NCBI GenBank assembly: GCA_016939335.1
Contig: JAFGHC010000039.1
Location: 2,376-66,375 of the forward strand
Direction of reading: 5' to 3'
DNA length: 64,000 nt
From: Candidatus Saganbacteria bacterium
GTDB lineage: Bacteria; Margulisbacteria; WOR-1; O2-12-FULL-45-9; XYB2-FULL-48-7
Both the position numbers and the translations under genes were made by a program. The notes under the pieces were generated by a model that saw only the letters and a list, made by a program, of their open reading frames with translations, was not told the DNA's origin and searched no databases. Shown here piece by piece: positions 3,814 through 34,560 of the stretch; the first letter of the stretch is position 1, and every line of letters starts with the position of its first letter.

Positions 3814-3820
3814 CTTTATT

Positions 3821-3910
3821 AAATCCGAATATCGAATTTCGAAATCCGAAACAAGTTCGAAATTCGAATTTATAATTTCCTTCGAATTTCGTGTTTCGGA
3901 TTTCGAATTT
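3821..3910. repeat. family-1 palindromic repeat (AATCCGAATATCGAATTTCGAAATCCGAAA ... TTCGAATTTCGTGTTTCGGATTTCGAATTT)
   Basis: Left arm AATCCGAAATCGAA, core TTCGAAATTCGAATTT..CCTTCGAATTTCG and right arm TTTCGGATTT are shared with copies at 33522, 34561 and 36153; the arms are reverse complements. Confidence 0.7.
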
Positions 3911-4903
3911 ACCCGGCCTGCCTCCACTCGTTAGGCACAAAAAGCTCCTGGAATTTCATGATGGCGTAGCGGTCGGTCATGCCGGCGATGAAATCAACCG
4001 TGTGCTGGAGCTGGTCATCCTGTTTGATGCCGTTCTGGAACGATTCGTCATAGTGATAGTGGCGGAAGAGCTGGGTGAGCAGTTCGGGGACCTTGGCCTC
4101 TTCGCTTTTGGCCGCCGGATTGGTGTAGACTTTCTCGTACATAAAGTCATAGAGCCCGTCCATGGCCGTCCGCGCCCGCTTGTCCATTTTGATCTCCGCC
4201 TGGTCCAGGCTGCTGTTGATGATGCTGGAGACCAGGACGTCGAGAATGTTGTGCCCGAGCGCCTTCATGTATTTGCCCGGTAGCTGCTTTTCCGTCAGCA
4301 CGCCGGCCCGGACCGCGTCCTCGATGTCGTGGCGCAGGTAAGCCAGCCGGTCGGCCAGCCGGACGATCTGGCCCTCGAGCGTCGCCGGCTGGGGATCGTC
4401 GGGCGTATGGTTGCGGACGCCGTCGATCACCTCGGCGCAGAGATTGAGCCCCTGGCCGTCGCGTTCGATCACTTCGACCACGCGCACGCTCTGCTCGTTA
4501 TGGAAAAAACGCCGGCCGTAGTTGGTCTTTAAAATATCGTCAAGGACGAACTCGCCGGCGTGGCCGAACGGCGTGTGGCCGAGGTCGTGCCCCAGGGCGA
4601 TCGCTTCGGTCAGGTCCTCATTGAGCCGCAGCGCGCGCGCGATGGTGCGGGCGATCTGGGAGACCTCGAGCGTGTGGGTCAGCCGCGTGCGGAAATGGTC
4701 CTTCACCGGCGAGATGAAAACCTGCGTCTTGTGCTTCAGGCGCCGGAAAGCCTTGCAATGGATGATCTTGTCGCGGTCGCGCTGGAAAGCGGTGCGGAAC
4801 TCGTCTTCCCGCTCCGGCCGCCGGCGGCCGCGGCTGTTCGCCGCCAGGGCCGCGTGGGGCGACAAAAATCGGGCTTCACGCTCTTCTATTTCCCGCCGAA
4901 TGA

Positions 4904-4907: not shown

Positions 4908-7648
<2,741 letters not shown>

Positions 7649-7755: not shown

Positions 7756-7828
7756 TGGAGCTGATGGGAGTTGAACCCACGACCTCTTGACTGCCAGTCA
7801 AGCGCTCTCCCAACTGAGCTACAGCCCC
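7756..7828 (-). tRNA. tRNA-Ala (anticodon GGC)
   Basis: Reverse complement GGGGCTGTAGCTCAGTTGGGAGAGCGCTTGACTGGCAGTCAAGAGGTCGTGGGTTCAACTCCCATCAGCTCCA; G3:U70 alanine identity pair; anticodon loop CT-GGC-AG. Confidence 0.85.
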
Positions 7829-16646: not shown

Positions 16647-17927
16647 ATGAAGAAAACAATACTTTTAATAACTCATGAGACGCCGGTCGAGCAGGCGGTC
16701 AGAAGTGCGCTGGACGGTTTTAGCATAGAAACAGCCGGCGCCCCCGAAGCCGCCGCTGAAAAGCTGCGCCAGAGCAAGCCCGCCCTCGTCATCCTCGATC
16801 ACGACCTGAAGCAGGACGAGGGCCTCCAGCTCTTCCGCCAGCTCCGGCTGCTGGCGCCCGCCACCGGCTTTATCCTCCTTTCACAGCAGAATGATATCCC
16901 CACCGCGGTGCAGGCGGCCAAGCTCGGCGCGGCCGATTTCCTGCAAAAACCGGCCGGAGCCAAGGCACTGCGGCTCTCCGTCGAGCGGAACCTGGCCGCG
17001 GCCGAAGGATCGGCCCTGGCCGCCGCCGGCCTCCCCTGGCTGCAGGGCGAGAGCCCGGCGCTGAAAAAGATGTTCGAAGCGATCGGCGGCGCGCTGCTGA
17101 CGCGCGCCAGCCTTATTCTGGTGGCGGAGCGGGGGATCGACAAAAGCGATGTGGCCGACTGCATCCACCGGCGCAGTCTCAAGCGCAAAAGCCGCCTGCG
17201 GGTGATCGACCTCGCCTCTTTCCGCCGGGAGGACCTGGAAGGGTCGTTCTGGGCGACGGTGCAGGAGGCGGCGGGGGAGAACCAGGCCGCCGACGAAGAG
17301 GACCGCTGCGGCACGCTTTATCTCGAGAATATCGAAAGTTTGGAAGAGAGCTTCCGCTTGAGCATTTTCGAGTTTTTCAAGGAGAAGAAACCGAAGCTCG
17401 ATCCCGAAGTTCTGATCGTGATCGGCCTCTACGACCCGCATGCTCTGCCGCCCGCGCTGGCCAAACATTACCTGCAGGTGCCGGTCCCGCCGCTCTGCGA
17501 GCGCAGGGGCGACCTGCCGCTTTTGGTCGGCCGCGAGCTGGCGGCGCTCTCGCTCCGGCACGGGAAGAACGTCAACGCTCTCTCCGCCGACCTGCTTTAT
17601 CTTCTCGGTCTTTACGATTTTCCCGGCAATTACCATGAGCTCTCGGCGCTGCTCGAGATCGGCGTGCTGGCGGCCGGCGGCGAGGTGATCGGGCTGGCCG
17701 ACCTGCCGCTCGATTTCCGGACGCTGCTGCAGGCGGCGGTCACCGCGGCGCACGTCAAAGGGGAGTTGAGTTTGGAAGCGGCCCGGCGCTGGCTGGAAAA
17801 GCTGGCTTACAAAACGCTGCTGGCCAAAACGAAGTCCGATCCCGGGGCGGTAGCGCGTTTCCTCGACCTGCCGCGCACGGCGCTGGCCGAGCGGGCGGCC
17901 GAACTAGGCACTGACCTGCTTAATTAA
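16647..17927 (+). CDS. NtrC-family response regulator with a degenerate sigma54-activator ATPase domain and a C-terminal Fis-type HTH
   Basis: REC-like N-terminus (ALVILDHDL). The central domain is AAA+-like, but the Walker A position reads AERGIDKS rather than GESGTGK. C-terminal HTH ARFLDLPRTALAERAAELG. Confidence 0.65.
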   Translation: MKKTILLITHETPVEQAVRSALDGFSIETAGAPEAAAEKLRQSKPALVILDHDLKQDEGLQLFRQLRLLAPATGFILLSQQNDIPTAVQAAKLGAADFLQKPAGAKALRLSVERNLAAAEGSALAAAGLPWLQGESPALKKMFEAIGGALLTRASLILVAERGIDKSDVADCIHRRSLKRKSRLRVIDLASFRREDLEGSFWATVQEAAGENQAADEEDRCGTLYLENIESLEESFRLSIFEFFKEKKPKLDPEVLIVIGLYDPHALPPALAKHYLQVPVPPLCERRGDLPLLVGRELAALSLRHGKNVNALSADLLYLLGLYDFPGNYHELSALLEIGVLAAGGEVIGLADLPLDFRTLLQAAVTAAHVKGELSLEAARRWLEKLAYKTLLAKTKSDPGAVARFLDLPRTALAERAAELGTDLLN

Positions 17928-19235: not shown

Positions 19236-19276
19236 GAGGTTATTATAACCAGCTGGGCAAGTTTAGGCAAACTTAT

Positions 19277-19314
19277 GAGCGGACAAAGGGCGGGACAAGG
19301 GCAAGGGAAGAAGG
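19277..19314. repeat. family-5 purine-rich G-tract element (GGACAAAGGGCGGGACAAGGGCAAGGGAAGAAGG)
   Basis: Four GGG runs separated by 1-4 nt (GGGcGGGacaaGGGcaaGGG), a canonical G-quadruplex motif. Related copies at 21253-21415 and 26901-27045. Confidence 0.55.
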
Positions 19315-19358
19315 TGCGTAACCGCGCCCCGGCCATTCGGGCATTCGCGGCTTATTCT

Positions 19359-20273
19359 TTATCCTTTACTGCCGGCCCTAGCCGCTTCGATCAGGCGCTG
19401 AAAGATCAGTGCGATATCCTTATTAGGGCTGTAAAGAAAGCTGAATTGCGAGTGGTTTTCACGATATGGCCCGTAGATCGGCACGCCGGCTCTGTCAAAA
19501 CCATAAAAATAGACAGGGTCATACCACTTTTTATCCATGGTCAAGCCATTGGTATCCAGATGCTTAAGCGGAACGTCCGCTTCGACGGTCGCCCACCAGG
19601 CATCAAAGTTGTTCGACAGCCAGAGACGGAAGCCCGGGTTGGCCAATGAGAGGGAGACCACAGGCAAAATGACCGACTTGCTGTTATGCGAACCAACCAC
19701 ATTAAAGATGCTCCCCTTTGGATCGGCTGCCAGCCCGGCTGCTCGCAGATCGTCCAGCATATTGAACTGGGCCCTGGCGTTTGATGCCCAGGCGCTGCGG
19801 TTGCCGTCCGGGGGATTGCGTCTGATCCATTGCCCCAGACTCAAGCAATCTTTAGTTTCGCAGAGCGCCGCCGCGGCGACGAGCCGGCCGAAAACAGTTT
19901 CAAAATTCGCGGCGGTAGCAAAGCTGAACGTCGAGCGATCTTCTTCGTAATTTAGGTAGATCGGGAAATTGCTCCCTTCGTAGCGTCCCTCGGAACTGGC
20001 CGGCCGCATTTCTTTGGTGTCCAGCCTGATCTCCCGGGCGAGGCTGACGGAAACCTGCAGCTTGCCCCCGGGCAGTTCGTGCGCGTGCAGCGTCAGGCCG
20101 AGCTGATCGAGTAAGATGGTGGAAACAGGCGAAGAGAAATCCCCCCGGATGTAAGTTCCTGACTGGCAGGCGAACCCGCTGCCAGTCCTGTCAAGCAGAG
20201 TGACTGCGGCCTGCAGCCTCCTGCTTAGGTTTGATCCGGCCGGTTGTGTTGGAGCGGTCCGTTCCATTCTCAT
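19359..20273 (-). CDS. hypothetical protein, paralog A of a tandem pair
   Basis: 304 aa; starts MRMERTAPTQ and ends AARAGSKG. Shares YGPYRENxxQFS, ADPxS and WLSN motifs with the adjacent gene. Preceded by the RBS AAAACGGAGGAAATTTTATG. Confidence 0.6.
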   Translation of the reverse strand: MRMERTAPTQPAGSNLSRRLQAAVTLLDRTGSGFACQSGTYIRGDFSSPVSTILLDQLGLTLHAHELPGGKLQVSVSLAREIRLDTKEMRPASSEGRYEGSNFPIYLNYEEDRSTFSFATAANFETVFGRLVAAAALCETKDCLSLGQWIRRNPPDGNRSAWASNARAQFNMLDDLRAAGLAADPKGSIFNVVGSHNSKSVILPVVSLSLANPGFRLWLSNNFDAWWATVEADVPLKHLDTNGLTMDKKWYDPVYFYGFDRAGVPIYGPYRENHSQFSFLYSPNKDIALIFQRLIEAARAGSKG

Positions 20274-20289
20274 AAAATTTCCTCCGTTT

Positions 20290-21171
20290 TTATCCTTTAC
20301 TGCCGACCTTGGCCGCGTCGATCACGCGCTGGCAGAGCGGCAGGAAATTGGCGCCGGCATAACGCAGGCTGAACTGTGCCCGGTTTTCCCTGTACGGACC
20401 GTAAACCGGCGCCGCGGCGTCGCGGAACCCTTTGAAAGCCGATGGCCTTGGCCGGTAAGCCCCCGCCCGACCCAGACGGAGAGCGATGGCCCGCGCGTTA
20501 ACCGACAGATGCGAGCGGAAAAGATCATTGGACAGCCAGCAGTCGAGTGCCAGGTTTGGCAGGGAAAAGCGGACCACGGGCAGGCCGAAAAGCTCCCGGC
20601 CGTAAAAGAGATCATGTTCGCCGATCACGCTGAAAACGCTCTCCGGATCGGCAGCAAGACAGGCGGCGCGCAGCCTCTCCAGCCTGGCGAACTGGCTTCC
20701 GGCTTTTGTTCCCGGGAGAACACACATGGTGTTCCGCTCTGACCATTCAGCCAGACTCAAACTGTGTTCGCCCTGGTGCCTCAAGGCCGCCGCCGCTGCC
20801 ATGACCAGCTGGCCGACGACGGTTACGGGGTTCCAATAGGTAGTAAAGCTGAAGCGCGAGTGATTTTGATGATAGTCCTGATAAAGTGGGAAGCTGTGGC
20901 CTTTATCGCCCGAAAGGTCTTGCTTCTCGGCCGGCAGCGTTCCCGTGGTATCGAAACTTATTTCCCTTCGCGTGGCGACCGACATCATCAGCCTTGGCGA
21001 GACGGCCTCTCGTATCGTTACTTGCAGCCCGACGCCCGGCAGCCAGAAGACCGCGTGGTTTCCGTGGATCATTGTTGAGCCGTGGTGGTCGAGGCCCGCG
21101 GCCGCTTGATGCAATCTATCCAGTTTTGCTCTTGATCTTAAAGTTGTTGTGCCGGTCCGTTCTATGTTCAT
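20290..21171 (-). CDS. hypothetical protein, paralog B of a tandem pair
   Basis: 293 aa; starts MNIERTGTT and ends AAKVGSKG. Same motifs and the same upstream leader (AAAACGGAGGGAATTTTATG) as paralog A. Confidence 0.6.
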   Translation of the reverse strand: MNIERTGTTTLRSRAKLDRLHQAAAGLDHHGSTMIHGNHAVFWLPGVGLQVTIREAVSPRLMMSVATRREISFDTTGTLPAEKQDLSGDKGHSFPLYQDYHQNHSRFSFTTYWNPVTVVGQLVMAAAAALRHQGEHSLSLAEWSERNTMCVLPGTKAGSQFARLERLRAACLAADPESVFSVIGEHDLFYGRELFGLPVVRFSLPNLALDCWLSNDLFRSHLSVNARAIALRLGRAGAYRPRPSAFKGFRDAAAPVYGPYRENRAQFSLRYAGANFLPLCQRVIDAAKVGSKG

Positions 21172-21252
21172 AAAATTCCCTCCGTTTTTATCGGGCAGTT
21201 TCCACCTTGAATTTATCTTAACCTTCCGGCGGAAATTTCACTTTTTTCAGAC

Positions 21253-21415
21253 AGGGGGCAAGAGAAAAGGCAAGGGAAGGCAAGGAAGGGCGGGATAAAG
21301 GGCAAGACAAAAGGCGCCTTCTGTTCCGCCTTTTGCCCCGCCTTCTGTCCCGCCCTCACGTGCCTTCATGTGCCGTTTGTCCCGCCTTCTGTCCCGCCCT
21401 CTGTCCCCATTGCAG
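21253..21415. repeat. family-5 purine-rich / pyrimidine-rich palindromic repeat
   Basis: Purine arm GGGGGCAAGAGAAAAGGCAAGGGAAGGCAAGGAAGGGCGGGATAAAGGGCAAGACAAAAGGCG. It is followed by its complement-like pyrimidine arm, with CCGCCTTCTGTCCCGCCCT repeated three times. Located in the divergent promoter region between paralog B and the Memo gene. Confidence 0.6.
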
Positions 21416-21446: not shown

Positions 21447-22229
21447 ATGAGCATCGTTTTCGCCGCGATCATGCCGCATCCGCCGATCCTTGTTCCGCCG
21501 ATCGGCAAAGAGCGCTTAAAGGACGCGGAAAAAAGCAAGCTGGCGCTGGAAGAGATCTCCCGCCGTTTTAAAAATCTTGATTTCGATACTATCGTCGTCA
21601 TCACGCCGCACGGCGACGTCGGCCAGGCCTCGGTCCCCGTCTACACCGGCCACGTTTTCGAGGGGAACTTCGGGGCGTTCGGCCTGCCCAAGCCTTCTTT
21701 CGTCTATAAAGGCGACCCGCAGCTCGGCCTGGCCGTCGTCAAGGATTCGCCGCTTGCCACCGCCTGCCCGGAGACGATCCTCGACCACGGCGTCCTCGTG
21801 CCGCTCTATTATCCGACCGCCGCCGGGATCAGGAAACTCCTCCTGCCGATCGCCGTCGGCTTTCTGCCGCTCTCAAAATTGTTCGAGTTCGGGCGGTCGC
21901 TCGCGCGGACGATCGACCGGCTCGGCCGGAAAGTTCTGCTGATCGCTTCCGCCGACCTGTCGCACCGGCTGACGCACGAGGGGCCGGGCGGCTACTCGCC
22001 GCGCGGCAAGGAATTCGACGACAAGCTGGTCGGGCTGGTCGGCAGTTACGACGTGAACGGGCTCCTGAAATTCGATCCCGACCTGGCGGAAGAGGCCGGG
22101 CAGGACGCCCTCTGGTCGATCGCGATCCTGCTCGGCGCGCTCGACGGTAAAAAGGTCGGGCCCGAGGTCATTTCTTACGAGGGGCCGTTCGGCGTCGGTT
22201 ATCTGGTCGCCGCTTTAGAGGTGAACTGA
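21447..22229 (+). CDS. AmmeMemoRadiSam system protein B (MEMO1 / extradiol-dioxygenase class III-like)
   Basis: N-terminus [20 protein letters not shown] and HGDVG are typical of the Memo/LigB family; 260 aa. Confidence 0.75.
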
Positions 22230-22741
22230 TGGGCGAGCACCCGCTGGTCCAGCTGGCCAGAAGGACGATCGAAAAATATATCCGCGAAGGTTTGGTGCTT
22301 GAAACGCCGGCGGAGCCGACGCCGGAAATGAAGGAGCGGGCGGGCGTTTTCGTTTCGCTCCACCGCCGCGGCGAACTGCGCGGCTGTATCGGCACGTTCC
22401 AGCCGGCGGCGGAGAACGTTGCCAAGGAGATCATTAACAACGCGATCGAGGCGGCGACGCGCGACCCGCGCTTCCCGCCGCTCACGCCGGCCGAGCTGGC
22501 GGACCTGGAAATTTCGGTCGACGTCCTGGGCCGGCCCGAACCGGTCGCTTCGCAAGCCGAGCTTGACCCGAAGCAATACGGCTGTATCGTCCGGGCCGGC
22601 GCCCGCCGCGGGCTGCTCCTCCCCGACCTGCCGGGGGTGGAGACGGCCGGCCAGCAGATCGCCAGCTGCAAGGCGAAGGCCGGCATCCCGGAGCGGGACG
22701 AAGTGGAACTGTACAGGTTCGAAGTTAAGCGCTATCATTGA
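22229..22741 (+). CDS. AmmeMemoRadiSam system protein A (AMMECR1 domain)
   Basis: [19 protein letters not shown] core with a conserved Cys; 170 aa; start overlaps the stop of the Memo gene. Confidence 0.75.
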
Positions 22742-22744
22742 GAC

Positions 22745-22865
22745 AAAGTCAAAATTAAAAAGTCAAAAGTCAAAAGTGCAATTCAAAAGTAAAAAGTTGA
22801 CGAGCGTGGGTAAATTTTGAATTTTTACTTGTAATTTTGAATTTTTACTTTTGACTTTTGAATTA
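22745..22865. repeat. family-3 inverted repeat built from TCAAAAG and CAAAAGTAAAAA units
   Basis: Left arm AAGTCAAAATTAAAAAGTCAAAAGTCAAAAGTGCAATTCAAAAGTAAAAAG. The right arm is its near reverse complement (TAAATTTTGAATTTTTACTTGTAATTTTGAATTTTTACTTTTGACTTTTGAATT). AT-rich island in a GC-rich intergenic region. Confidence 0.7.
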
Positions 22866-22905: not shown

Positions 22906-23958
22906 ATGTTGAAAGTTGGTATTATCGGGGCGGGCGGCTACGCCGGGGCGACGCTGATCAATCTTTTGCTGCGCCACCCGGAAGCCGCGATCGTCTGGCT
23001 GATGTCGGAGGACGCGCACCAGGGGAAAAAGATCGCCGATCTCTATCCGCATTTGACGGGGCAACTCAACCTCGCCTGCCAGACGCTGGCCGACCTTGAC
23101 AAGAATTTAAGCTCCATTGATCTCGTTTTCCTGGCCCTGCCGCACGGCATCGCTATTAATTATGTCCCCAGGATCATTGACGCCGGCAAGCGGGTCGTCG
23201 ACCTCGGGGCCGATTACCGCTTCGCCGACAACGCCGTCTTTAAAAAATGGTACGGCCTCGAGCACGCGACGGAAAAATATTTAAAACAGGCGGTCTTCGG
23301 CCTGCCCGAGCTCTACCGCGCCGAGATCAAGAAGACAAAGCTCGTCGGCAACCCCGGCTGTTATCCGACCGCCGCGATCCTCGGCGCGGCGCCGCTCGTG
23401 AAGCACGGCCTGGTCGAGCTCGATTCGCTCATCGTCGACGCCAAATCGGGCGTTTCCGGCGCGGGGCGCGGCGTCTCGCTCAAGGCCCACTTCTGCGAGC
23501 GGAACGAGGGGCTCGAGGCTTACGCCGTCACCACCCACCGCCATATGGGGGAGATAGAATATCAGATCAGCAGAATATCAGGGGGCCAGATAAACGTAAC
23601 GTTCGTCCCCCACCTGACGCCGATGACGCGCGGGATTTTGGCGACGATCTATGCCAAAGTCAAAAGTCAAAAGTCAAAAGTCAAAAATGAGGAATTAACG
23701 CAATTATATAAAGATTTTTATAAGGGCGAGCCGTTTGTCCGGGTCTTTGACGATAAATTGCCTAACACCAAGTTCGTGGCGGGGACCAATTATTGCGACA
23801 TCGGCGTGCAGTACAACGAAGCGACCGGGCAGGTGATCGTCATTTCGGCGATCGATAACCTCGTGAAAGGCGCGGCCGGCCAGGCCGTCCAGAACATGAA
23901 CCTTCTCTGCGGCTTCCCGGAAACGACTGCGCTCCAGCAGCTCGCCGTCTACCCATGA
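22906..23958 (+). CDS. argC: N-acetyl-gamma-glutamyl-phosphate reductase
   Basis: MLKVGIIGAGGYAG Rossmann N-terminus and catalytic GNPGCYPTA motif. An in-frame AAGTCAA x4 tract lies at 23656-23688. Confidence 0.9.
   Translation: MLKVGIIGAGGYAGATLINLLLRHPEAAIVWLMSEDAHQGKKIADLYPHLTGQLNLACQTLADLDKNLSSIDLVFLALPHGIAINYVPRIIDAGKRVVDLGADYRFADNAVFKKWYGLEHATEKYLKQAVFGLPELYRAEIKKTKLVGNPGCYPTAAILGAAPLVKHGLVELDSLIVDAKSGVSGAGRGVSLKAHFCERNEGLEAYAVTTHRHMGEIEYQISRISGGQINVTFVPHLTPMTRGILATIYAKVKSQKSKVKNEELTQLYKDFYKGEPFVRVFDDKLPNTKFVAGTNYCDIGVQYNEATGQVIVISAIDNLVKGAAGQAVQNMNLLCGFPETTALQQLAVYP
23656..23688 (+). repeat. tandem heptanucleotide tract (AAGTCAA x4) inside the argC coding sequence
   Basis: AAAGTCAAAAGTCAAAAGTCAAAAGTCAAAAAT encodes KVKSQKSKVK in frame. 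The same heptamer builds the intergenic family-3 repeats at 16621 and 22745. Confidence 0.75.
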
Positions 23959-26900: not shown

Positions 26901-27045
26901 AGGGGGCGGGACAAAAGGCAAGTAAGGGCAAGTGAGGGCGGAACAAACGGTGGGAAAGAGAAAAAGGGCGCCCTTTGTTCCGCCTTTTGTTTTGCCCTTT
27001 CCCCCTTTCCTTGCCCTCCCTTGCCCTTTGTTCCGCCCTTTCCCT
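26901..27045. repeat. family-5 purine-rich / pyrimidine-rich palindromic repeat
   Basis: GGGGGCGGGACAAAAGGCAAGTAAGGGCAAGTGAGGGCGGAACAAACGG ... GGGCGCC ... CCTTTGTTCCGCCTTTTGTTTTGCCCTTTCCCCCTTTCCTTGCCCTCCCTTGCCCTTTGTTCCGCCCTTTCCC. Central hairpin GGCGGAACAAA / TTTGTTCCGCC. Confidence 0.6.
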
Positions 27046-33520: not shown

Positions 33521-34560
33521 AAATCCGAAATCCGAAATCAGAAATACGAAATAATTTCGAAATTCGAAATTCGAATTTCCTTCGAATTTCGTTATTCGTA
33601 TTTCGGATTTGCGCGCTCTCATTAGTGGCGGCATCCGCTTTCGCCCTCGGCGAGGTCCCCGCCACTAGCGAAATAATCAACCCGTCGGTCGCTTACGTCC
33701 GGGAGTTCGGTTCGGGCGGCTCCGGTGAGCGCCAGTTCTACTTTCCGCAGGACGTCAGGTCGGCCCAGCTCGGCGACCTCGAGACGGCGCTCAATAATCT
33801 CTATATCGCCGACACCGGCAACAACCGGGTCCAGCGGCTCGACGAGAACGGCGGTTTCGTCTACCAGTTCGGCGGCTTCGGCCACGAGGACGGCAGGTTC
33901 AACACGCCGGTCGGCATCGCCGTCGACTTCAATTTCCGCCTTTATGTTTCGGAAAAAGACAGCGACCGGATCCAGCAGTTCGACATACGCGGCAACTTCC
34001 TCCGCGAGGTCGGCAGCGGCGAGGTCAACCTGCGCGCCCTCCAGGACCCGGCCGGCCTCGACGTCGACTCGCTCGGTTATCTTTACGTCGCCGATTCGGG
34101 CAACGACCGGGTGCTGAAGTTCGATCCCGCGGGCAATTTCGTCAGCGAAGTCGGCGGCTTCGGCATCGGCCCCGGCTTTCTCAACAAGCCGCTCGATGCG
34201 GCGGCCGACCGCGACCGCAACATTTACGTGGCCGACACCGGCAATAACCGGGTCCAGAAGTTCGATTTTGACGGCCGCCCCGTCTTCTCCTTCGGCCGCT
34301 CCGGCGGCGGGCCGGGCGAGCTGTCGGCCCCTTCGGCGCTCGCGGTCGACGACAAGTTCATTTATGTTTCCGACACCGGCAACGACCGCCTCTGCCTTTT
34401 TTCCCGGCAGGGGAAGTTCCTCCTTGCTTTCGGCCAGAAAGGGGCGGGGCCGGGCGAATTCAACGCGCCGCTCGGGCTCAGCCTCGGCCGGCAGGGGCGC
34501 ATTTACGTTGCCGACAGCGGCAATCACCGGATCGTTGAGCTTAGGGTAAAATGGCGCTAA
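33517..34560 (+). CDS. NHL-repeat six-bladed beta-propeller protein (secreted)
   Basis: Six repeats of the DxxGNIYVADTGNNRVQKFD type. ATG at 33517 overlaps the trpC stop. Codons 2-30 run through a family-1 repeat copy; alternative GTG at about 33622 within the hydrophobic segment. Confidence 0.7.
   Translation: MKIRNPKSEIRNNFEIRNSNFLRISLFVFRICALSLVAASAFALGEVPATSEIINPSVAYVREFGSGGSGERQFYFPQDVRSAQLGDLETALNNLYIADTGNNRVQRLDENGGFVYQFGGFGHEDGRFNTPVGIAVDFNFRLYVSEKDSDRIQQFDIRGNFLREVGSGEVNLRALQDPAGLDVDSLGYLYVADSGNDRVLKFDPAGNFVSEVGGFGIGPGFLNKPLDAAADRDRNIYVADTGNNRVQKFDFDGRPVFSFGRSGGGPGELSAPSALAVDDKFIYVSDTGNDRLCLFSRQGKFLLAFGQKGAGPGEFNAPLGLSLGRQGRIYVADSGNHRIVELRVKWR
33522..33610. repeat. family-1 palindromic repeat
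   Basis: AAATCCGAAATCCGAAATCAGAAATACGAAATAATTTCGAAATTCGAAATTCGAATTTCCTTCGAATTTCGTTATTCGTATTTCGGATTT. Confidence 0.7.

Follow-up and report, generated by a model that had tools for sequence, protein, structure and literature searches.

What do two neighbouring genes without any recognizable relative encode, and did they arise by a recent duplication? The question is raised by a locus of a Candidatus Saganbacteria metagenome-assembled genome (contig JAFGHC010000039.1, assembly GCA_016939335.1), of which a stretch of 64,000 nucleotides (contig positions 2,376 to 66,375, hereafter the window) was analysed; unless stated otherwise, all positions are numbered along this window. The two genes, here called A and B, each correspond exactly to a protein deposited at NCBI as 'hypothetical protein' of this genome. 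The initial annotation, which was made from the sequence alone, had described them as a tandem pair of minus-strand paralogs of 304 and 293 amino acids, duplicated together with their leaders, bracketed by G-rich repeats and otherwise unexplained; the coordinates of both open reading frames (ORFs) match this description exactly. In this study, each gene was found to be a fused double copy of a domain of about 150 amino acids, so that the locus holds four copies of it, and the domain belongs to a large protein family that has not been described.

Four copies of one domain at the locus

A and B are true, old tandem paralogs, and both are intact. They align collinearly from end to end (BLASTP, 36% identity over 317 columns, E 1e-44), and the alignment displays the common N-termini, the internal motifs YGPYREN..QFS, AADP and WLSN, and the C-terminal GSKG, as had been read from the sequence. 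The remark that A is richer in AT than B also proved correct, the difference being slight (GC content 56.4% for A, 59.5% for B and 59.6% for the window).

The picture of a tandem pair of paralogs was right as far as the paralogy is concerned, but missed that each gene is itself an internal duplication. A 30-nucleotide (nt) direct repeat (family D2), encoding Y..Y.(E/Q)(N/D).S.FSF, occurs four times with spacings of 483, 445 and 480 nt, twice in each gene. The N-terminal half of A aligns with the C-terminal half of B (BLASTP, 30% identity over 136 residues, E 1e-5). In addition, a hidden Markov model (HMM) of the family, built from unrelated single-domain members only (alignment A3), matches both halves of A (E 2.6e-4 for the N-terminal and 1e-37 for the C-terminal half) and both halves of B (E 3.1e-4 and 2e-17, respectively), and therefore the locus contains four copies of one domain (Table 1). 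The score of B is 61 bits, as against 127 bits for the C-terminal domain of A.

Neither protein has a signal peptide or a transmembrane segment, as judged from the Kyte–Doolittle profile (maximum 19-residue mean 1.40 for A and 1.23 for B) and from the N-termini, which are not hydrophobic. Both are therefore predicted to be soluble.

Table 1. Coordinates of the two genes, their domain copies and the surrounding sequence elements in the window.
Feature	Position	Strand	Details and basis
ORF A, paralog A, JW873_06985, 304 amino acids	19359..20273	-	Second gene, 16 nt past the stop codon of B
ORF B, paralog B, JW873_06990, 293 amino acids	20290..21171	-	First gene of the two-gene unit
A, N-terminal degenerate copy, about residues 13-136	19866..20237	-	HMM match at residues 49-135; predicted helix, four strands, loop, strand, helix
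A, C-terminal canonical copy, about residues 145-302	19368..19841	-	HMM match; H196-x-S-K-S, N222, G258-F
B, N-terminal degenerate copy, about residues 10-130	20782..21144	-	HMM match; collinear with the N-terminal domain of A
B, C-terminal copy, about residues 139-291	20299..20757	-	SKS replaced by the insertion HDLFYGRELFG; R, N, W and E lost
Leader and ribosome-binding site of B, AAAACGGAGGGAATTTTATG	21169..21190	-	Sequence, pattern scan
Leader and ribosome-binding site of A, AAAACGGAGGAAATTTTATG	20271..20292	-	Overlaps the stop-codon region of B; direct repeat D3
Promoter-like element upstream of B: GTGAAA, 19 nt, ATAAAT	21211..21243	-	Suggested by alignment with orthologs
Long imperfect hairpin, G-rich units of about 12 nt and their complement	21250..21393	.	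Inverted repeat I1; -98.7 kcal/mol, z -7.3; between the divergent B and AmmeMemoRadiSam-B (LigB-type) genes
Lone G-rich arm downstream of A, containing GGGCGGGACAAGGGCAAGGG	19281..19317	+	Sequence-level G-quadruplex motif; no significant fold (z -0.67)

A family without a name

A word-indexed search returned a single foreign homolog, P0002, which is 55% identical to A. An exhaustive HMMER search of 1.84 billion cluster representatives yielded 192 proteins at E <= 1e-3. Four of these are close relatives with two domains (P0002, P0003, which is B itself, P0004 and P0005); the others are mostly 140-200 amino acids long, and nearly all of them align to the C-terminal domain only. A second search with a 60-member profile of single-domain proteins gave 231 proteins at E <= 1e-5. 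All members are unnamed ('hypothetical'), and none carries a precomputed Pfam domain. As judged from these sequences, the domain represents a large undescribed family, in which proteins of about 160 amino acids with one domain are the common type. The notion of an isolated unexplained unit must accordingly be dropped, considering that the domain belongs to a family with at least 190 clusters.

The statement that the pair could not be assigned to any described family, instead, was borne out. Neither A and B, nor about 30 single homologs, nor whole alignments gave any consistent match in Pfam, NCBIfam, PADLOC or PHROG; members scanned singly gave no recurrent Pfam match (150 members) and no recurrent PHROG match (60 members); and a sequence-profile search of the PDB gave nothing at E <= 10. 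No match to a well-characterized housekeeping family was found. The only Pfam model scoring on A or B, DUF6621 (PF20326), was discarded as noise: its match to A (residues 116-159, E 0.048, 13.8 bits against a gathering cut-off of 27 bits) spans the linker between the two domains, and the model scored on only one of the 150 members. No description of the family was found in the literature on Saganbacteria or on domains of jumbo phages. It should be noted that the novelty is that of an undescribed protein family, rather than of a demonstrated new kind of biological system.

Predicted structure and conserved positions

An alignment of three sequences gave a poor AlphaFold2 model of A (predicted local distance difference test score, pLDDT, 53.8), which was superseded by a model obtained with 150 sequences (m08e34e063a25; pLDDT 90.9, predicted template modelling score 0.86). 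In the latter, each half of A is predicted to fold as an alpha/beta domain, in which a long helix precedes a four-strand antiparallel meander, and a loop of about 40 residues leads to a fifth strand and a C-terminal helix. Searched with Foldseek, the model had no significant match, the best E-values being 0.096 in the PDB (probabilities <= 0.16) and 0.017 in BFVD, and the predicted fold is possibly new. The weak BFVD matches included gp491 and gp493 of Bacillus phage G, which were rejected as relatives, since the array gp485-495 shows no sequence relation to the family (hmmsearch, E > 0.09). About a dozen consecutive uncharacterized ORFs of 113-158 amino acids are found at gp485-gp497 of this phage (L040, 31019-36826), and several of them are weak Foldseek matches to the model.

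Nineteen positions are near-invariant in the family, namely (A numbering) W149, Q169, V192, H196, S198, K199, S200, L203, P204 and V205, and further R220, N222, F223, W226, E257, G258, F259, Y270 and F277. In the wider family, the conservation is 98% for H, 96% for N, 94% for Q, 93% for S and 91% for R. A polar set is thus kept across the family, but unevenly at the locus: A keeps 17 of the 19 positions (R220 is replaced by S and E257 by Y), B keeps 11 (SKS, R, N, F, W and E are lost), and the N-terminal domains of both keep almost none. P0004 retains R and E. By homology, A and B are family members, which have diverged at a putative functional site.

The single-domain members from Paenibacillus and from IMG/VR have a domain homologous to that of the window proteins, and share with the C-terminal domain of A the motifs L-x-E-W, Q, V-V-G-x-H-x-S-K-S-I-x-L-P-V, N-F, G-F, Y-G-x-Y and F-S. 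They consist of one domain of about 160 amino acids and keep R220 and E257. A and B differ from them: each is a fusion of two domains, the N-terminal one being degenerate; the two genes stand in tandem; and R and E are missing from A, as is most of the polar set from B. Judging from the order of the strands, HxSKS (end of strand 1 and the turn between strands 1 and 2) and RxN (end of strand 3 and the turn between strands 3 and 4) should lie at the same edge of the sheet, at the tips of neighbouring hairpins.

The two-domain clade of Saganbacteria is basic (isoelectric point, pI, 8.4-9.9), and the range becomes 8.4-10 when its nearest single-domain relatives are included, while the family median is about 6. 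Mimicry of DNA was rejected on these values.

An old duplication in a variable slot

The reading of the pair as a recent duplication did not survive the comparison with other genomes. In a neighbour-joining tree with bootstrap built on the C-terminal domains, the two-domain clade is monophyletic (bootstrap 96.5%), A groups with P0002 (100%) and B with P0005 (81.5%), so that A and B are not each other's closest relatives and their split predates these genomes. B and P0005 share the derived features of SKS loss, LPVVRF and NDL. At the DNA level, the identity of A and B is 53% overall rather than uniformly high, and third positions are saturated (0.27-0.60); likeness is preserved only in the leader and in the last 15 codons (82%), a pattern that suggests local constraint or gene conversion at the ends.

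The orthologs occur singly and share the chromosomal slot of the pair, which lies between glmM and the AmmeMemoRadiSam gene of LigB type, as observed for L001/L002, for the contig of P0004 and for L006/L007. Tandem pairs are not the rule in the family: the window is the sole tandem case found, and every related locus scanned has one gene. In the Saganbacteria-like L006 (8-3584) and L007 (1008-3546), the slot contains a B-type ortholog surrounded by four more uncharacterized genes (encoding 293, 122, 199 and 208 amino acids, the last apparently a membrane protein), and thus the slot behaves as a variable island. Two candidate partners read by eye, a 199-amino-acid ORF after P0005 and a 214-amino-acid ORF after P0008, are absent among the family HMM matches.

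Between the window and L001, the flanking proteins (GlmM, LigB-type, AMMECR1, ArgC and ArgJ) have identities of 74-85%, to be compared with the 55% identity of A to P0002 and the 40% identity of B to P0005 (253 amino acids, E 4e-49); as estimated from these values, A and B evolve about two to three times faster than the housekeeping genes around them. The order of events suggested by the sequences is a fusion of two domains, followed by tandem gene duplication before the genomes diverged, and then by loss of one of the two types in some lineages.

Occurrence of the family and its genomic neighbours

A scan of IMG/VR returned 23 loci, 16 of which are on contigs of at least 100 kb and eight on contigs of at least 200 kb, up to 448 kb. 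Among 185,579 species-representative genomes, scanned with one narrow peptide pattern, two loci were found. One member is on a 478-kb contig of small uncharacterized ORFs, and others are in phage-like arrays. P0036, which is an independent two-domain fusion, is encoded in a (pro)phage by an opposite-strand gene, which has the capsid protease/major capsid genes on one side and the portal/terminase genes on the other. Two Paenibacillus megaplasmids also carry a family gene, namely a 359-kb replicon of P. thiaminolyticus SY20 (WP_272050340.1; family HMM E 4e-55) and the 510-kb pSC2 of P. polymyxa SC2 (WP_013386166.1). Neither a tblastn search of GenBank phages with four queries nor a metagenome scan with alignment A1 gave any match. 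Very large phages, a prophage and megaplasmids carry the family as a variable accessory gene, as do, sporadically, uncultured bacteria. A 212-kb cellular contig (L036, 5243-8144) has four uncharacterized genes, including a family member, inserted into its ribosomal-protein operon between rpsJ (S10) and rplC (L3).

The neighbours of the family genes vary. In both Paenibacillus megaplasmids the family gene lies directly downstream of the dTMP kinase gene tmk (L045, 7185-8369; L046, 7366-8477), and in pSC2 its start overlaps the end of tmk, which suggests translational coupling; genes for macro-domain, WGR and Sir2 proteins are also present within 8 kb in these megaplasmids. A general association with tmk was rejected, because tmk is adjacent in these two related plasmids only. 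In four related phages, the family gene is located between the genes of the topoisomerase II subunits, and genes for a helicase, SbcD and QueD are found in the vicinity. Other genes occupy this slot in a fifth phage, which has a GyrB-like protein of 58% identity, and for this reason topoisomerase II was likewise rejected as a general partner. When the neighbouring ORFs were compared all against all by BLASTP, none was found in common beyond this group of four phages. Genes related to nicotinamide adenine dinucleotide (NAD) or to nucleotides do recur (Nudix, NAMPT, NMNAT-like, macro, WGR, Sir2, phosphodiesterase, isochorismatase and tmk), including an adenylyltransferase-like gene, recognized by its motif, in L021, and phosphodiesterase and isochorismatase genes in L035; DNA methylase genes are found near the members in L025 and L039. 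The NAD- and nucleotide-related neighbours are too irregular to be more than a lead.

Possible functions

The explanation that we prefer, with a probability of roughly 40%, is that the family belongs to the accessory gene pool of mobile elements, and that its conserved polar and aromatic residues act on nucleic acid or on a phosphorylated or nucleotide-type ligand, by binding or processing it. The working unit would be a dimer of domains, and two-domain fusions would have arisen at least twice, in the Saganbacteria clade and in P0036. Q169, H196-x-S198-K199-S200, R220-x-N222 and E257-G-F, together with the W, Y and F aromatics, may form a single site, which would be lost in the N-terminal copies, devoid of R and E in A, and deprived of almost the whole polar set in B. 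These losses make it most likely that A and B are non-catalytic or re-specialized binding proteins; they would be fast-evolving pseudo-dimers, possibly forming an A-B complex, retained in the chromosome from that gene pool.

Several points weigh against this explanation. The site is a putative one, proposed from sequence conservation; the conserved polar residues could be structural, their clustering being deduced from the order of the strands alone. That four genomes have the Saganbacteria genes in one chromosomal slot is a sign of prolonged vertical descent and of a role in the cell, with nothing in it that speaks specifically of conflict. Some cellular contexts are purely housekeeping, such as the position beside priA in L003 and that within a ribosomal-protein operon, and no partner gene or neighbourhood is conserved. 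Finally, the viral status of the IMG/VR contigs is the call of IMG/VR itself, and the narrow pattern used for the species-representative genomes makes the rarity in cellular genomes a rough estimate.

The accessory gene pool of mobile elements is often associated with virus-host conflict, and phage morons and nucleotide-binding anti-defence proteins of the Tad1/Tad2/Acb2 type are small soluble phage cargo, forming oligomers that bind ligands at conserved polar or aromatic pockets. The family would resemble such proteins in being small, soluble and variable phage cargo; however, no homology was detected, and the chromosomal copies of Saganbacteria are vertically inherited. A role of A and B in conflict is a guess. 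A bolder version of the same idea, which we consider unlikely, is that giant phages, prophages and megaplasmids use a new fold and family as a dimeric binder or enzyme of a nucleotide-type molecule, possibly derived from NAD or ADP-ribose, in conflict with the host, and that Saganbacteria keep a fused pair with a degenerate site, which would serve as a counter-measure or regulator encoded in the chromosome. The idea of such a ligand comes from the scattered Nudix, NAMPT, NMNAT-like, macro, WGR, Sir2, phosphodiesterase and isochorismatase neighbours.

The same neighbourhoods, and the basic pI of the Saganbacteria clade and its nearest single-domain relatives, could also be read as those of a factor of DNA or nucleotide metabolism, e.g. 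an accessory subunit or regulator of replication, topoisomerase or deoxynucleoside monophosphate (dNMP) kinase functions, the Saganbacteria versions being basic and binding nucleic acid. The topoisomerase II slot of the four phages with its helicase, SbcD and QueD genes, the position downstream of tmk with the overlap in pSC2, the adjacency to priA, the DNA methylases of L025 and L039 and the NAD or nucleotide genes near several loci (Nudix, NAMPT, NMNAT-like, L021, L035) would all fit. This remains doubtful, however, because none of these associations is general, tmk being confined to two related plasmids and the topoisomerase slot being filled differently in a related phage; moreover, the neighbours are mostly small uncharacterized ORFs, the family median pI is about 6, and the neighbours in the window are glmM and the AmmeMemoRadiSam genes. 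The sporadic spread and the insertion between conserved genes (those of the topoisomerase II subunits, rpsJ-rplC, priA-coaBC, capsid-portal, LigB-glmM), with one family gene per related locus scanned and two in the window only, are also what would be expected of a selfish free-standing gene resembling a homing endonuclease. LAGLIDADG enzymes offer a parallel, as an architectural analogy only, in their sporadic insertion between conserved phage genes and in having a form of about 160 amino acids expected to dimerize and a fused pseudo-dimer of about 300; in the same way, the single-domain proteins would be homodimers and the two-domain proteins monomeric pseudo-dimers, with H, K, R, N and E conserved. 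LAGLIDADG enzymes have the fold alpha-beta-beta-alpha-beta-beta-alpha, with a helix between strands 2 and 3, which is absent from the topology predicted here. The family has no sequence or Foldseek similarity to these enzymes and no sign of nuclease activity or mobility; no nuclease family was matched in Pfam or the PDB, and no LAGLIDADG, GIY-YIG, HNH or PD-(D/E)xK motif is present. In addition, a slot held while the genes diverged to 40-55% identity between flanks of 74-85% fits vertical descent and not homing, so that a selfish gene appears improbable.

Two more possibilities concern the pair itself. A and B could be inhibitors of the immunity or antitoxin type, arranged in a small poly-immunity array and having no enzymatic site of their own, as tandem paralogs that diverge fast, lack catalytic-looking residues (B especially) and sit in a variable island with other uncharacterized genes (L006/L007) might indicate. 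We rate the chances of this as slim, considering that neither the window nor any related locus has a toxin gene next to the family genes, that PADLOC gave no match, and that polar residues conserved as strongly as in this family (91-98% for H, N, Q, S and R) are unusual for immunity proteins. The loss of eight of the 19 conserved positions and the low HMM score of B might rather indicate a functionless, decaying duplicate, but this is very hard to reconcile with the data: B is an intact ORF of 293 codons with a strong GGAGG site, its relative P0005, which carries the derived features of B, is the only copy in another genome, and the duplication is so old that an unselected copy would have been disrupted by now.

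Whatever their function, two orphan 'hypothetical proteins' now lead to a domain family of hundreds of members, of which they are the first to be described; the family, for which neither curated families nor solved structures yielded a relative, has a confident predicted structure and is concentrated on very large phage contigs and megaplasmids. These elements are rich in uncharacterized genes, some of which prove to have anti-defence or host-takeover functions, and the members in cultured Paenibacillus strains open the family to experiment. Stepwise evolution, through fusion, tandem duplication, differential loss among lineages and asymmetric decay of the polar site, is also well illustrated by the Saganbacteria pair.

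Signals for translation and transcription

The leaders of A and B are near-identical Shine-Dalgarno sequences, ATAAAAACGGAGG(G/A)AATTTTATG, and both genes start 7-8 nt past the GGAGG within them. Within the window, GGAGGNAATTTTATG is confined to the two starts even when two mismatches are allowed. A similar leader, GGAGG-N-ATTTTATG, is carried by the L001 ortholog, and translation initiation therefore appears to be under selection; alternatively, the likeness of both the leaders and the 3' ends may stem from gene conversion at the gene ends. The proposal that the duplication had included the leader was right about the match, but the likeness is not explained by a recent event that brought the leader with it, in view of the old split and of the saturated third positions.

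The promoter-like element upstream of B (Table 1) is kept upstream of the orthologs in L001/L002 and L007, although a simple sigma-70 scan did not call it. A has no counterpart of it, and therefore the two genes are probably transcribed as one B-A operon. Downstream of the pair, glmM has a near-consensus promoter (TTGCCT, 17 nt, TATAAT; 19242-19270, minus strand), which is kept in L001.

G-rich repeats and other features of the window

The G-rich repeats that had been seen to bracket the pair are real, the unit GGCGGGACARRRGGC having 17 matches in the window against 2.4 expected, with clusters at 19289, 21289-21398 and 26905-27037. The two sides are not alike, however: the long hairpin is upstream of B, and only a lone arm is downstream of A (Table 1). 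Moreover, the recurrence of the unit at 26905-27037 means that it is not specific to the pair. Rfam has no family in the region; for the hairpin, only generic hairpin-type matches were obtained, all below threshold.

In addition to the hairpin next to B, long hairpins are found at 3820-3911, 22745-22864 and 33528-33610, each of the four consisting of its own short tandem unit and the complement; the units in the window are GGCGGGACAGAA, AAAGTCAAAAGT and AAATCCGAA/ATTTCGAA. L001 has hairpins at 4660-4860 and 5860-6010, with the units CTAACTAACG and GATCAGGA. Intergenic hairpins are thus a trait of the window, and apparently also of its relative L001, rather than a part of the gene pair.

The genes for the AmmeMemoRadiSam system B (LigB/Memo-type) and A (AMMECR1) proteins (21447-22741, plus strand) overlap by one base and are directly followed by argC and argJ; no gene for a radical-SAM partner is adjacent to them within the stretch examined. 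In argC (22906-23958, plus strand), AGTCAAA is repeated four times in frame at 23656-23690, where it encodes KVKSQKSKVK, and matches the units of the 22745-22864 hairpin just upstream. The argC ortholog of L001 has KVKSKKEEVK at the same place and with the same length, and the repeat-like DNA within the coding sequence is therefore no insertion.

The gene at 16647-17927 (plus strand) encodes a response regulator with a receiver domain. The AAA+ module of sigma-54 activators scores weakly in its L001 ortholog, and the protein may be a degenerate regulator of the NtrC type. Four tRNA genes are also present, three of them clustered at 419-761 and the fourth at 7756-7828.

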